Positions 1 to 11,485 of a stretch of 59,965 bases of DNA are shown here, piece by piece (positions within the stretch are counted from its first letter, which is position 1; each line of letters begins with the position of its first letter). The position numbers and the translations under genes are program-made. The DNA is from Planctomycetota bacterium. Lineage in GTDB: Bacteria > Planctomycetota > UBA8108 > UBA1146. The stretch lies in the NCBI GenBank assembly GCA_036338595.1, contig JAYZBV010000053.1, positions 1 through 59,965 of the forward strand, given 5' to 3'. The notes under the pieces were generated by a model. The model searched no databases, had not been told where the DNA came from, and worked only from the letters and a program-made list of their open reading frames with translations.

Positions 1-843
1 TTGCTGCTGGCGTTGACCGTCACCGGTGCCGTCAGTTGCTTCTATGCCACGACCGGCTGGCGCCTCAACGAGAACCTGGAAGCGCAACTGCTGGTACCGA
101 GTATCCATGCAAAACAACACCTTCCCTGGGTGGTTCTGGATCGGGATCAGCCGCTCGATTTCCCCGACCAGTTGCAGCAGTTGCAACAGCAGATCGCTGC
201 GGGAACCCGGTCCCCACGGCCCATCTTCGTCAACTTCACCGGCCACACCTGACAGAACTGCAGGCTGATGGAAAATGGCATTTTCCTGGAGCCAGAAGTC
301 GAGCAGTTGCTCGGCCAGTTCGAATTGTTCGAGATCTTCACCGATGACGCCAACAGTGAGGTGGAGGCGAAGTACCGTGCCCATCAGATCGAATACTCGG
401 GTTACTACGCCAATCCGACCTACATCGTGCTCGACAGTGCCGATCATCTGGAGGTGACACGCGGTTCTTTCACCAATAGTGGCGATGAGTTTGCAGAGTT
501 CCTCGGTGAAGGACTGCAAGATCGTCCCGCCTTCGAGAGCCGTCTTCAGTTCGATGGAATCTCCATCGTCGAGGCTGGCAAGACGGTCACGGTGCTCACG
601 CGCGAACAACCGTGGCTTCATGAGGGGCAAGAAGCCGCCACCTATCGGCAAGCGGCAGTGGATCAACTCGGCACACGCTTTGCCGCATCCACCACCTTTC
701 GCGTCGGGGAGCATCTGGAGGAGGGTGAGTACATCATCCGTGTGCGATTCGTCGGTGGGCTCTACCGAGGAGATGAACGCATCCGCACCTTCTCACTGCC
801 GATCAAGTTAGCACTCCAGATCGAGGCCTCCTCACCGAGTTAG
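1..843 (+). CDS. dsbD: DsbD-like thiol:disulfide interchange protein, C-terminal thioredoxin domain; 5'-truncated; probable selenoprotein (TGA 250-252 = Sec, UQNC)
   Basis: ORFs 1..252 and 268..843 are in the same frame. Read-through gives PIFVNFTGHT-U-QNCRLMENGIF...EIFTDD...NPTYIVL, matching the DsbD-gamma motif FTGxxCxNCRxME. A SECIS-like hairpin follows the TGA. Confidence 0.85.
263..293 (+). promoter_or_regulatory. Putative bacterial SECIS element
   Basis: GGAAAAT(270-276)-GGC-ATTTTCC(280-286) stem-loop, with outer pairing GGCT(263-266)/AGCC(290-293). The G-initial loop starts 24 nt after the UGA. Confidence 0.7.
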
Positions 844-6752: not shown

Positions 6753-8816
6753 CTAGGCTGCGGAACCGCTGGAGCCGCGCCGGTAGAGATGTCGCTGAAA
6801 TCCCCGGTGGATCAGCGAGATCAACACGACGCCCGCTTCGATCGAGTAGAAGAGCAGCAGCAACTTGAGGATTCCATCGGTGAATCCATAGGAATGTAAC
6901 CCCACTCCGAGCAGGTTCACTCCCCACCAGGAGAAGGCGACGATCATTCCGTTGATCACGACCAGGATGTGAAGGCCATGTTCTCGAACCAGGCCGCTCA
7001 TGCGGGCATGGAGGATGATCAACTCTGCCAGGCAGATCAACAGTGCACCATTCTCCTTCGGATCCCAGCCCCAGAATCGTCCCCACGAGTAATTGGCCCA
7101 GATGCCACCGAGGATGGTTCCGACGATGCTGAAGAACAGACCGAAGCAGATGGTTCCGTAGACCATTCGCGTGATGCTGCGGTAGAAGTCCTTGTCGTTC
7201 TTGCGGATTCCAAACAGCTTGCCGATGAGCCAGACATGGGCGATCGCAGCGGCCAGCAAACCCGCTGAATATCCGAGCGTGACGGAAGTCACATGGGTGG
7301 AGAGCCAAAAATTCGTATCGAGCACCGCGACCAGGCTCGGCATCGTGTCCCCGGCAGTGATCGCTTCCTTCAGTTCGTATTTTATCGAGAGGAAGCAGCC
7401 GAAAGAGCCGAGCAGAGCAGCCATCGTCAACGCAATTTTTCTACGGTCGAATCTTTCGATGAAGAGCGCCGTGATCACACAGCATCCCGTGATGAAGAGG
7501 ATCGTCTCGTAGAGCGTGGTGACCGGCGGGCGACCCTGGATGATGCATCGAAGAGTGACTCCTGTGACCAGTAGAGTGATTCCCAGTAAACTGAAGCCCC
7601 ATGTGGCTCTTGTGGGCAGAATCGAGGTCGGTCGCAACCATCCGATGCAGGCGATCACGAATGCGAGCAGGAAGCAGATCAACGCACGATAGAAGTAATC
7701 CATCTTGTAGAAAGAAACTTCCATCGAGATGGTGCTGTTCTGCCCGTGGTGTGATGCGAGAGTAGTCAGACCATCTCGGACCATGGCAGCCTTGGCTTGG
7801 AATGTGTCTCTACTGATGTCCCTCGCCGCAACCATCGCTTCCATCTGTTTCAGTGCCTCTGCTCGCAATGCGACGGGTTCCTTGAGGAGCGCATCCTCGA
7901 TGACTGTGTCGGCGCGGCCCCAGACCACCGGCAGTACATCCTGTCCCTCTGGTGGCTCATCATTGAGAGGTTCCGGAGGGAACCAGGCGATGCCCATCCC
8001 GGCAATCTGAAGTTGCTGAAGTAACTGGGTCTGAAGTTCTTGCAAGGCATTGACCACCTCGGTCTGACGCTCGGGGGGCAGTTGCAAGATCGATTCCCTG
8101 TTGGCCAGTTGTTCCAGACCATCGACTCCTTCGATGATGGGGCTGAACCCGGTATGGTCCTGGCTTTCGCCGTAGATGGCTCTCAACTCAGGGATCGTGT
8201 CGAGTGGAAAGGTGTGTCGGGCGCTATCGAAGGCGTGAAACAACTCCTCGAGGGCACGGATATTCTGCGCCAGCTGTACCGTCTGACGCTCGACCAGTTC
8301 CCAGTTCGATGGTTCCTTGGTTTCGGTGATCTGGCCTGCGGATCTGAAGATCTGATCGAGAGCAGGAAGTAGCTCCTCAAAGCTCCACCGAGAACTTCGT
8401 TTTCGATCCGACACATCTATACCTGCACTGGTCAGGACCTGCGCATTGATCACCCGGATACACTCGTATCTGCGAGCGATCTCGGGGTAGATCATGCAAT
8501 CGAGCGCCCATGCCACGGGGCCTAGCGTTTCGTCCCCGACCCTCAGTGTTCGTTTGCCGTTTATTTTCAGCATCGTGAAGCCGGCATAGGTATCGAATGG
8601 TTTGACTCGCCCTCCATGCTGGAGAGGCCAGTGAGCGATGGCGTCCAGCGTCTCGCTGGACCACGGAGTTCGCGCGGTGAGGGGCGACTCGGAAGGATTC
8701 TGCACCGCAAGATCGACCGCTGGAGTGCCCTCTACAGCGGGATCTGTTTGGCCCCAGGCGAGCACTGAATGCAACAACAGCAGAGGGATCAGCATGCGGA
8801 GTCGCTGGTTCATCAT
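6753..8816 (-). CDS. ccsA: Cytochrome c biogenesis protein CcsA (System II) with large N-terminal periplasmic domain
   Basis: WWD motif WANYSWGRFWGWDPKE, PPVTTLYE, VLDTNFWLSTHV, GVGLHSYG; N-terminal GRVKPFDT. Confidence 0.92.
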   Translation of the reverse strand: MMNQRLRMLIPLLLLHSVLAWGQTDPAVEGTPAVDLAVQNPSESPLTARTPWSSETLDAIAHWPLQHGGRVKPFDTYAGFTMLKINGKRTLRVGDETLGPVAWALDCMIYPEIARRYECIRVINAQVLTSAGIDVSDRKRSSRWSFEELLPALDQIFRSAGQITETKEPSNWELVERQTVQLAQNIRALEELFHAFDSARHTFPLDTIPELRAIYGESQDHTGFSPIIEGVDGLEQLANRESILQLPPERQTEVVNALQELQTQLLQQLQIAGMGIAWFPPEPLNDEPPEGQDVLPVVWGRADTVIEDALLKEPVALRAEALKQMEAMVAARDISRDTFQAKAAMVRDGLTTLASHHGQNSTISMEVSFYKMDYFYRALICFLLAFVIACIGWLRPTSILPTRATWGFSLLGITLLVTGVTLRCIIQGRPPVTTLYETILFITGCCVITALFIERFDRRKIALTMAALLGSFGCFLSIKYELKEAITAGDTMPSLVAVLDTNFWLSTHVTSVTLGYSAGLLAAAIAHVWLIGKLFGIRKNDKDFYRSITRMVYGTICFGLFFSIVGTILGGIWANYSWGRFWGWDPKENGALLICLAELIILHARMSGLVREHGLHILVVINGMIVAFSWWGVNLLGVGLHSYGFTDGILKLLLLFYSIEAGVVLISLIHRGFQRHLYRRGSSGSAA

Positions 8817-10000
8817 GCATACTCCTTCAACTTTTTCGACTGTCGCTTGCTGTAGGCAAGAAATTTCTGAATGAATGTCGCCGCCATCCCGATCGCAATC
8901 ACGATGCAGGAATAGAGGGGCCAGTGATCCGAGGGATTTCTGACCACAGAGAAGACACTGAACAATTCATCGCCAGGTGCTGCGTTCTGAGGCCCCCAGC
9001 TCGACTGGAAGAGGATCAGTCCCTGGTCTCTGAGGGGGTCGTTCATCTCGATTCGTACACGCCGATCCTCCTGGCCCGTTCGCTGCGTCACATCGCTTCG
9101 ATATTCCTTTGCCGTGGCGATTCCCGCGTGATCGACTTTCTCGAAATTATCGAGCCGGATCGAGAAGGGCATCGAATGACGAACCTTGCGAAGAGCCACT
9201 GCAAAAATCCTGTCTGCGACGGTGAAAGTCCAGGGGTAGTTCTGTCCGCCCCAGAGTAGCGCCTGTTGAGGTCGATCAGATGAGGAGTCTGCAGGAGTCA
9301 TTTCGATCACGAGACCGGGCCGGTTCTGCTCGTTTTCGGCCGCCCGGGGCTGTTCCAGCAGTCCCCAGCCTTCGATGGCGGGAGAGGATGGCTTCCAGTT
9401 GGGTCCGATCGGGAGCGCACTGCAATTGTCAAGTGCGCCGCTGATCTCGAGTTCGAAGGGCAGCCCCGGAACCGCATCGATTTTCACCCTTGCTGCTGAT
9501 TGCCAGCGGTCCTGTGCAATCCGGTGCTCTTCGACCTGAGACTGCCCGGTTTCGAAGACGGCCACTTCCCACTCATGATGACTGATGAATTCGGAGGAAA
9601 CTTGCGATTCCCATAGGCGCAGAAAGCCATCTTCCGAAGCGACCAGCTTGACCAGTCCAGCTGACATCATCACGGCGATACCGACATGGATGATGAAAAT
9701 GCCATAGTTCTTCTTGTTGACCTTCAGGCGCAGGATTCCACCGATCAGCAGATTGATGGTGAAGATGATCATGCACAGCAGACCTCCAGGAAGGGGGAGA
9801 GGGAACTGCATGAAGCTCAGGTCAAAGAAGTGAACCAGCCCCCACGACTCGAAGTACATCTTCTGCACCTGATAGAGTCCATGTTCTGCCTGTTCGAGAG
9901 TGCCCAGGAAGGTGAGAATCAGCAGGAATGTCATCATGACAGTTGCCAGTTTCTGAGAGCCCAGAAACTCGAGCGCTTGTTTCGCGTGAGTGCCCCTCAC
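8813..10000 (-). CDS. ResB/CcsB-like cytochrome c biogenesis protein
   Basis: N-terminal TMs (LTFLGTLEQ; IIHVG with conserved His), PFSIRLDNF, IEMNDPL, FQSSW; abuts ccsA. Confidence 0.85.
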   Translation of the reverse strand: MRGTHAKQALEFLGSQKLATVMMTFLLILTFLGTLEQAEHGLYQVQKMYFESWGLVHFFDLSFMQFPLPLPGGLLCMIIFTINLLIGGILRLKVNKKNYGIFIIHVGIAVMMSAGLVKLVASEDGFLRLWESQVSSEFISHHEWEVAVFETGQSQVEEHRIAQDRWQSAARVKIDAVPGLPFELEISGALDNCSALPIGPNWKPSSPAIEGWGLLEQPRAAENEQNRPGLVIEMTPADSSSDRPQQALLWGGQNYPWTFTVADRIFAVALRKVRHSMPFSIRLDNFEKVDHAGIATAKEYRSDVTQRTGQEDRRVRIEMNDPLRDQGLILFQSSWGPQNAAPGDELFSVFSVVRNPSDHWPLYSCIVIAIGMAATFIQKFLAYSKRQSKKLKEYA

Positions 10001-11148
10001 TGTGAAACCTCCAGCGAGGATACGAGTTTCATCATCGATTCACGTGCAGCAGTTACATCTGCGGTGGGGCCAACCATTTTCACGAAGACGGAGCGATCAC
10101 TCAGTTGTCGGATCAGACCGATCATTCCCCAGTCGCTCTCTGGGGGGCTGCCCATGCTGGAATAGGGACCGGTCCCTTCGATGATGATGGCCTCGCCGCC
10201 GAGCATCTGTGCTGTCGGGAGGGTAGAGAGTTGTTCGGGGCCGATCGGATCGAGACTCAACTCGGCAAGCCAGCGATTGGCGTTGGCGAGAGCGCCTCCG
10301 GCGTCTCCACCGAGAACCGTGATCCAGCAACTGGTTTCTTCATCGATCAGGAAGGTGACTTCACGCATCGGCCGTGGTCCATCGACAGTCCAGCCCTCCG
10401 GGGTGTCCCAACGAAGTGATGGAGGGGGCGGCTGCTGGGGCTGTGAATCGCGTTCGAGCCGAAGCGATGTGACGAAGCGCGCCAGGTTCTCCGCCTCGGA
10501 TTGCAGTAGTGTTCTGGGACCGATCGCCTTCACGAACAAGGTGCTATCGCCAATGGGAAGTACATGAACGGCCATCCTCGCATCCTCGACAACCTTCCCG
10601 GAGAACCCATCTGTGAAGGTACCATCGATCTCGAAACGAACTCCCTCGGCGCCAAGGATGGCAACTGGCGGCAATGCTTGCAGAGCATCATCCGAGATGG
10701 GGTTCTGACCCATTTGCTGGCACCAACGATCGATGTTTTGACGAAGACTCCCGCCACCGGGAATGACGGTGAGGAAGCACTCGCCATCTGGATGACCAGC
10801 GATCAGCACATTGACACGACGCATGGCGGTCGGCGGAGCATCCACCCATCCTTCAGGAAGATCGTAGGCGAGCGCTGGAGCCGATGCAGGCTCCGGTGTT
10901 GAGCCCCCTGAACGCTGACGGCCAAACCGTTGAGAATGCGTGGCTCCTGGAAGAAGCGGATGGACCGCCTCCTCGATCACCCTCACATCATCATATGCAT
11001 GATTCGCCTGAGAACTTCCCGTGCACGAACACAGCATGAAGGCCAGCAAGGAGAGCAGGACCATCTCATGGAACCGAGGCTGTCGCTCGATGGCCGAGGC
11101 CTCTGGCGACTTCGACCATCGAAATAGCTGGTTTCCGACTGATTCCAT
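9997..11148 (-). CDS. Hypothetical (lipo)protein with two tandem homologous domains, ccs-associated
   Basis: Repeated YDLPEGW..AMR / WDTPEGW..PMR, NIDRWCQQMG / NANRWLAELS and FVKAIGP / FVKMVGP; lipobox-like LCSC. Confidence 0.7.
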   Translation of the reverse strand: MESVGNQLFRWSKSPEASAIERQPRFHEMVLLSLLAFMLCSCTGSSQANHAYDDVRVIEEAVHPLLPGATHSQRFGRQRSGGSTPEPASAPALAYDLPEGWVDAPPTAMRRVNVLIAGHPDGECFLTVIPGGGSLRQNIDRWCQQMGQNPISDDALQALPPVAILGAEGVRFEIDGTFTDGFSGKVVEDARMAVHVLPIGDSTLFVKAIGPRTLLQSEAENLARFVTSLRLERDSQPQQPPPPSLRWDTPEGWTVDGPRPMREVTFLIDEETSCWITVLGGDAGGALANANRWLAELSLDPIGPEQLSTLPTAQMLGGEAIIIEGTGPYSSMGSPPESDWGMIGLIRQLSDRSVFVKMVGPTADVTAARESMMKLVSSLEVSQ

Positions 11149-11155
11149 TGAGGTT

Positions 11156-11485
11156 CTATCCGTTGATGGAGGACAACTTCTCTTCGATGGACGGTTTCGG
11201 ATGGGCACCGGACAATTTGTCAACAACCTCGCCATCCTTGAAGAACAGAAGCGTGGGTACGCCCTGGATGGCAAATTTGACTGCCAGCTGGGGAGCCTGA
11301 TCGATGTCAACCTTGCCCACCTTCACGCCCTTGTCGGCGAATTCATCTGCGAGCTGCTCTACCACAGGAGCGATCGTCTTGCAGGGTCCACACCAGGTGG
11401 CGTAGAAGTCCAGCATGGCCACTCCTCCGCTGGCGATTTCCGATTCGAAGTTGTTGTCATCAATTGTCAGCAAATTGCCCGCCAT
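11156..11485 (-). CDS. trxA: Thioredoxin
   Basis: DFYATWCGPCK, 109 aa. Confidence 0.95.
   Translation of the reverse strand: MAGNLLTIDDNNFESEIASGGVAMLDFYATWCGPCKTIAPVVEQLADEFADKGVKVGKVDIDQAPQLAVKFAIQGVPTLLFFKDGEVVDKLSGAHPKPSIEEKLSSING

Follow-up and report, generated by a model that had tools for sequence, protein, structure and literature searches.

A probable selenocysteine-containing DsbD encoded across an in-frame UGA in Planctomycetota

The stretch of DNA analysed here (the window, 59,965 nt) makes up all of contig C53 in G000, a 2.9 Mb metagenome-assembled genome that is 88% complete and 7% contaminated. Its first 843 nucleotides, on the plus strand, contain the 3' part (residues 666 to 945) of a 945-codon dsbD gene. 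Residues 1 to 665 lie on the reverse strand of contig C106, with a likely start at the ATG at C106:2136, and the end of that strand is identical to window positions 1 to 141. Upstream of the window, the same frame is open on C106 for 677 codons. The join is based on this exact 141-nt overlap together with relatives, and it is supported by genome G004, because the latter carries the whole gene uninterrupted on one contig (88-97% identity by segment) along with the same glutaredoxin-like upstream neighbor. This neighbor (L001) is a small ORF with a WCPDC motif that closely precedes the start of dsbD on the C106 reverse strand; it gave no Pfam match in the frame tried, and counterparts occupy the same position in G004, G008, G003, and G024.

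The joined gene encodes two DsbD-alpha domains, a DsbD-beta membrane domain, a gamma thioredoxin domain with the motif U749-Q-N-C752, and a cysteine-free all-beta C-terminal domain, in that order, and a signal peptide is predicted at the N-terminus. On the C106 part, Pfam recognized DsbD_TM (PF02683, E = 5.7 × 10−25) and two stretches of DsbD_N (PF11412, E = 1.6 × 10−11). Each alpha domain has a cysteine pair (C146/C151 and C302/C307), the beta domain has C418 and C538 (in TPCVYP and FTCVGP), and seven hydrophobic segments of the membrane domain exceeded the threshold used. This gene is the sole DsbD_TM match in the 88% complete genome. The gamma domain (118..522, plus strand) matched Thioredoxin_7 (E = 4.9 × 10−7) and would lie in the periplasm. 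Residues 1 to 134 of an AlphaFold model aligned with E. coli DsbD-gamma (1vrs_D; Z = 12.6, rmsd 2.5, 117 residues aligned) and with a Bacteroides fragilis structure (3f9u_B; Z = 12.2, rmsd 3.1, 121 residues aligned).

The protein thus combines alpha domains with cysteine pairs, a beta domain with two catalytic cysteines, and a gamma fold with UxxC, three features of the DsbD class. The initial annotation had proposed a selenocysteine (Sec) protein of DsbD or CcdA type; the DsbD half of that proposal stood, given the two DsbD_N stretches and DsbD_TM on C106, with Sec supported indirectly as described below. A CcdA protein, which consists of the membrane domain only, was ruled out by the alpha and gamma domains in the same frame. 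ScsB proteins carry a Lys two residues after the first beta cysteine and an alpha domain that cannot be aligned to DsbD-alpha (PMC3322552, available text); here, the first beta cysteine is followed by V-Y-P with no Lys and alpha matches PF11412, so this class was ruled out as well. No NCBIfam model scored above its own cut-off, the best (DsbD, TsoB, and Trx7/PDZ) all falling far below, and no Rfam family reached its gathering threshold within the window.

Frame 1 contains a single internal stop, a TGA at 250..252 (plus strand) flanked by FTGHT and QNCRLME, and then remains open to the true stop, a TAG at 841..843, as first annotated. Aligning the gamma-domain profile to 3f9u (DFTGYGCVNCRKME, E = 1.2 × 10−20) placed the TGA at the first Cys of CxxC, in a motif, FTGxxCxNCRxME, that is common to 3f9u and the DsbD described here. 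The placement of the codon at the catalytic Cys was therefore upheld, both by this alignment and by the homologous loci described below, and we read it as selenocysteine U749 at the first position of U-Q-N-C. The second, resolving residue, Cys752 (TGC at 259..261), is invariant in alignments A1, A2, and A4.

Past the gamma domain, the beta-rich extension that had been noted from the sequence proved to be a domain of ~105 aa (526..840, residues 841 to 945), modeled entirely as strands with a pLDDT of 87.5. Within the order, it occurs only in the loci of families f1 and f2, and it is absent from f3 and from the more distant Sec forms. The Ig-like fold of DsbD-alpha carries a Cys pair in its cap loop, and neither the window copy nor the A5 consensus contains a Cys. 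No Pfam family matched, and Foldseek returned no match at E = 0.001 or better. The best VIA Z-score was 4.7, and DsbD-alpha was not among the fold matches. Comparing the domain with an alpha-domain profile in hhalign gave 86% probability over 41 columns, a weak hint that it may be a Cys-free copy of DsbD-alpha; comparing it with alpha-1 as single sequences gave only 6%. A role as a scaffold that binds clients or alpha would be a guess, and we hold it with low confidence.

The same alignment column holds TGA in 87 Planctomycetota genomes and TGC or TGT in 100 other homologous loci, counts from which we left out L037 (a fragment missing the site) and two loci with other TGA-bearing thioredoxin proteins (L061 and L062, ~25 bits). 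Among 61 relatives, G000 included, 48 had a match to the protein; the aligned codon was TGA in 29 of the 29 order-level loci that covered the site and in 18 further, more distant loci at the order or class level. We then sampled 401 genomes from the phylum, and 253 of them gave a match to the gamma profile at E = 1 × 10−8; among the 150 matches listed, 71 from outside the class had one TGA. Of the loci fetched from this sample, all 40 with one stop had TGA and all 20 with no stop had TGC or TGT, at the first position of CxxC. The other 80 Cys loci belong to other phyla or, in a few cases, to Planctomycetota; they came from a scan that was able to match Cys codons only. The Cys that the initial annotation expected at this position in homologs was thereby confirmed, as was the retention of TGA in relatives, which it had suggested testing. 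The two excluded loci, L061 (in G048) and L062 (in G039), are separate genes of the thioredoxin fold in which TGA takes the first position of CxxC (W-U-PGC and W-U-PAC), and in one of the two the TGA follows 1,074 open codons.

The gene selA was present in 87 of 87 TGA genomes; within the phylum loci, all 40 TGA genomes had it, as did 17 of 20 with Cys, so that the 3 of 60 genomes with no selA all carry Cys. Among the 61 relatives, 58 had selA, and the three others also had no match to the protein. In metagenomes, we found at least 119 matches to the TGA motif, and 75 of the 80 fetched were open gamma domains. A quick tree of 106 rows required at least nine changes between U and C, five of which were forced by well-supported branches. 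Outside Planctomycetota, a sample of 121 genomes from the phylum of an Acidobacteriota genome gave 10 matches, with no TGA inside any match; one of the 10 is in the unpublished G487, and no conclusion here depends on that genome by itself. Judged from these sequences, the predicted Sec-DsbD is widespread in Planctomycetota and mis-annotated.

The genome itself encodes the means to read UGA as Sec. As the initial annotation had suggested checking, selA, selB, selD, and a tRNA-Sec are all present, and the SelA, SelB, and SelD proteins scored above curated cut-offs. The genes selA, selD, and tRNA-Sec(UCA) lie together on the minus strand at C72:32141-34795 (L002, L003, and L010), and selB is on C108. 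The selD gene contains its own in-frame TGA (CAG-U-ASK) at the known UxxK site, making SelD a selenoprotein candidate, and its hairpin has a GGUCG loop closed by U-A, a closure shared by the dsbD hairpin (U-GGC-A).

A crude scan of the genome returned more in-frame TGA candidates in UxxC, CxU, or CU contexts with hairpins, many of them likely false: C21:281(-), C34:49260(-), C93:3131(+), C33:5111(-), C71:3170(-), C28:3132(+), C77:20236(+), C77:15103(+), and C108:25123(+). Near-identical contexts on C21 and C34, and on C93 and C33, may reflect paralogs or the 7% contamination. A sizeable set of unannotated selenoproteins is probably encoded in this genome.

A putative bacterial SECIS element occupies 256..308 on the plus strand, immediately downstream of the UGA. 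Its 7-bp upper stem (270-276 paired with 280-286) is capped by a GGC loop (277-279) 24 nt after the TGA, and a middle stem (263-266/290-293) and a lower stem (256-261/303-308) lie beneath it; a 40-nt local fold gave −12.8 kcal/mol. This hairpin is within the bSECIS limits given in the available text of PMC13188914. The gene thus shows an in-frame UGA aligned to Cys, sel genes in the genome, and a hairpin within bSECIS limits, three features of a bacterial selenoprotein. The stem-loop with a G-initial loop described in the initial annotation is present, but alone the window hairpin is unexceptional, as it was not significant against shuffles (z from −0.6 to −1.9). The minimum free energy structure of 250-310 folded the upper part differently from the proposed SECIS, the RNAalifold consensus was weak (four pairs, −1.75 kcal/mol), and an earlier test based on minimum free energy only separated the groups poorly (50 of 89 TGA loci and 27 of 100 Cys loci).

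Across 21 sequences, 83% of cells in the stems pair, versus 28-48% when the partners are slid, and seven pairs change on both sides; the structure was derived from these same 21 sequences, which are related. Synonymous divergence fell to 0.19 at codons +15 to +20 and 0.50 at +5 to +14, with most other windows at 0.58-0.88 and a control window at codons +51 to +60 also low (0.38). Hairpins of bSECIS shape with an energy of −7.5 kcal/mol or below were found at 54 of 87 TGA loci versus 14 of 100 Cys loci; in this crude test 33 of the 87 TGA loci miss the threshold, the TGA loci are richer in GC (0.62 vs. 0.57), and kin are not independent. Within the phylum (40 U and 20 C loci), the hairpin energy differed (P = 0.017) and the folding z-score did not (P = 0.5). 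Based on these sequence comparisons, the hairpin likely acts as a SECIS.

Since the case depends on a single codon, we weighed three other explanations of it. The gene sits at a contig end of the incomplete and partly contaminated assembly described above, a setting in which a sequencing or assembly error might be suspected. However, contigs assembled from DNA runs X2 and X6, from two studies other than that behind the genome, span 250-252 and read TGA, not TGT or TGC, with no alternative letter, so the TGA is not an assembly error. It also recurs in 86 other genomes. A contig from RNA run X17 has TGA too, with only 27 letters 5' of the codon, below our 31-letter rule, and run X13 provided no cover at 239-306. 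An error is thus refuted, and we assign it practically no weight. A second possibility is that UGA is decoded here as Cys or Trp, either because the code has changed or because a Sec-type tRNA inserts Cys. The homologs do carry Cys at the site, and there is a precedent, as a few bacteria are known to have selC-type cysteine tRNAs that read UGA. Against this, TGA is the commonest stop in the genome, ending 696 of the 1,080 stop-ended ORFs that are at least 400 codons long, and TGG is used normally, which rejects a global code change and bears out the earlier remark that other genes end in ordinary TGA. In addition, the one tRNA found with a UCA anticodon was called as tRNA-SeC and adjoins selD and selA on C72, and SelD has a TGA of its own at a known Sec position. 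We consider this reading of the codon very unlikely.

The remaining alternative takes the TGA as a real stop, through a nonsense mutation or a natural split, leaving a 748-aa alpha-alpha-beta protein, possibly along with a distinct 191-aa protein that starts at the ATG at 268. The frequency of TGA as a stop in this genome would fit such a view, as would the position of that ATG, only 15 nt past the TGA and within the hairpin, and the presence of the 191-aa piece (268..843, plus strand) in databases, where its exact sequence is found in NCBI as a "hypothetical protein." Its cluster has 30 members; among the 15 listed, all are 191 aa long, and the 11 named ones are all "hypothetical protein," mostly from Planctomycetota with one labeled Bacillota. 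In our tree, the named Planctomycetota records nest among rows of the same phylum, and on both grounds we assign the genome to Planctomycetota. No full-length read-through record appeared among proteins of 491-2000 aa, which is weak evidence. The 191-aa records bear out the early suggestion that gene callers split the gene in two.

A real stop is nevertheless difficult to reconcile with several other observations, and we regard it as extremely improbable. In all 87 genomes the stop is a TGA located at the catalytic Cys, the N-C between the TGA and the ATG is invariant, and the downstream piece would have neither CxxC nor an export signal. Residues 769 to 945, after the hairpin, had dN/dS values of 0.12-0.17 against the five closest of the ten relatives compared, and the values upstream were 0.07-0.11; for the other five relatives, the values were 0.18-0.43 with synonymous sites near saturation. 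Purifying selection thus acts on the sequence 3' of the TGA. Furthermore, five genomes of genus g16, in the same class (L044, L046, L047, L049, and L050), have a circularly permuted DsbD, shown for four of them with L044 partial: the two alpha domains are followed by the late membrane helices, the Sec-gamma domain, and finally the early helices, which hold both beta cysteines. In L048 and L051, also of this genus, the domain order is normal. The permuted genes favor read-through, because stopping at the TGA would lose both beta cysteines and leave no catalytic membrane Cys pair. Taking the sequence evidence together, we conclude that the UGA at 250-252 very probably encodes Sec in the gamma domain of a complete DsbD, and on this Sec reading the 191-aa ORF is an annotation artefact.

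We propose the following mechanism for the intact gene, in which the insertion of Sec, the SECIS function, the topology, the relay, and the clients are all predictions. SelB with Sec-tRNA would read the UGA, aided by the hairpin just downstream, yielding a DsbD electron transporter in which Sec replaces the first Cys of the gamma CxxC. In E. coli DsbD, the first gamma Cys forms mixed bonds with beta and alpha, and it is unusually unreactive. Here, the gamma domain would form a selenenyl-sulfide between U749 and C752, and Sec749 would form the mixed bonds with beta and alpha; a selenol at this position would stand in sharp contrast to the unreactive Cys of the E. coli protein. E. coli DsbD passes electrons from thioredoxin to beta, gamma, and alpha and then to DsbC, DsbG, and CcmG (PMC3322552, available text). 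By analogy, the same relay may be expected because all cysteines matching those of E. coli DsbD are present: electrons would pass from cytoplasmic thioredoxin to beta C418/C538, to gamma U749/C752, to the two alpha pairs (C146/C151 and C302/C307), and from there to clients in the envelope, for example those of cytochrome c maturation and disulfide isomerases.

Candidate partners are encoded nearby. At 6753-11485 on the minus strand of the window are genes for a CcsA-type protein (PF01578), a ResB-like protein (PF05140), an unassigned 376-aa ORF, and a thioredoxin (WCGPC); the CcsA and ResB genes are 6-9 kb from dsbD, or 6-11 kb with the thioredoxin included. By sequence, this region is a predicted system II cytochrome c maturation cluster, and it is plausible that the CcsA/ResB pair is a client of DsbD and the thioredoxin its donor. 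Directly after dsbD are two plus-strand ORFs with no significant Pfam family, one at 990-1559 encoding a Cys-rich, probably exported protein and one at 1588-2940 encoding a 450-aa membrane-anchored protein.

If the Sec reading is right, the bacterial selenoproteome gains a core redox hub of the membrane, and a gene annotated in two pieces throughout the phylum is corrected. Selenium would be required by the one DsbD identified in this genome, which predicts that in abundant marine planctomycetes envelope reduction, and probably cytochrome c maturation, requires selenium. The repeated switching between Sec and Cys within one set of orthologs also offers natural pairs for testing the role of Sec in an extracytoplasmic relay. 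A bolder and, in our view, doubtful proposal is that in much of Planctomycetota the sole supply of reductant across the membrane to the envelope depends on selenium, with the UGA as a selenium-sensing switch. Read-through would then give full DsbD, and termination would give an alpha-alpha-beta protein without gamma and with lower or different activity. Were this so, envelope redox and cytochrome c maturation would be tied to the selenium supply, and lineages would have moved between Sec and Cys many times.

The domain cd02953 is presumably DsbD-gamma, and a Sec-containing precedent is filed under it. The "Trx-like 2" set from the GOS metagenomes comprises 22 reads assigned to cd02953 with Sec first in CxxC (PMC2398784, available text). 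By our reading, one of them (LYADWUVACKEFE) resembles a fragment of a proteobacterial DsbD-gamma; as far as the accessible text goes, no read among the 22 carries NFTGxxUxNC or shows a membrane domain (PMC2398784), and "UVNC" and "UQNC" occur zero times in the four supplementary files. A second relative is the "thiol:disulfide interchange protein" selenoprotein family (PF13098, UxxC, represented by WP_011366075.1 in Table 1 of PMC13188914, available text). It shares UxxC in a thioredoxin fold of broadly the same type, but its type is a small soluble Trx_2 protein with a helical tail. According to the available part of the deep-Sep supplement (PMC12013277), a representative of this type is soluble, with FFNPGUIGC and, by our count, 190 aa. 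Since that representative has no membrane or alpha domain and the protein here is a 945-aa membrane DsbD, assignment to this family was ruled out. A third is TsoB (NF045694), a predicted selenoprotein resembling a rhodanese/DsbD fusion, which shares DsbD-like beta and gamma parts; its model scored 113 bits on the N-terminal part of our protein against a cut-off of 805. TsoB is listed with UxxxxU and two Sec (PMC13188914, available text), and the DsbD described here has no rhodanese domain.

In the accessible portion of a catalogue from 2026 that covers 119 families of prokaryotic selenoproteins (PMC13188914), DsbD is named only within TsoB, and no DsbD of three domains with a gamma Sec is listed. 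A planctomycete genome paper lists 13 selenoprotein candidates, none named DsbD in the text available; two are called "thiol-disulfide isomerase-like thioredoxin" and are known to us by name alone (PMC4807772). BSepDB was built with a loose tblastn search (E at most 0.01; PMC13326102, available text), and it may hold some members under a generic Trx name. Within the available text of the literature searched, which included PMC1794560 and PMC13326102, no full DsbD with Sec in gamma is described. Sec in a DsbD-gamma-like domain therefore has a precedent as a fragment, and the complete three-domain Sec-DsbD family appears, from the text available, to be undescribed.

The exchange of Cys for Sec in a thioredoxin UxxC is itself a familiar pattern, and the chemistry is unsurprising. 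The closest known systems are E. coli DsbD and the Bacteroides-type branch represented by 3f9u, which share the alpha-beta-gamma order and a Cys pair in each domain. The NCBIfam DsbD model (PRK00293) scored 120 bits on the N-terminal 712 aa; its cut-off of 330 is set for the whole protein, and pieces were scanned here. Relative to E. coli DsbD, the planctomycete protein would have Sec where the gamma domain has its first Cys; it also has two alpha domains and an additional C-terminal domain free of Cys.
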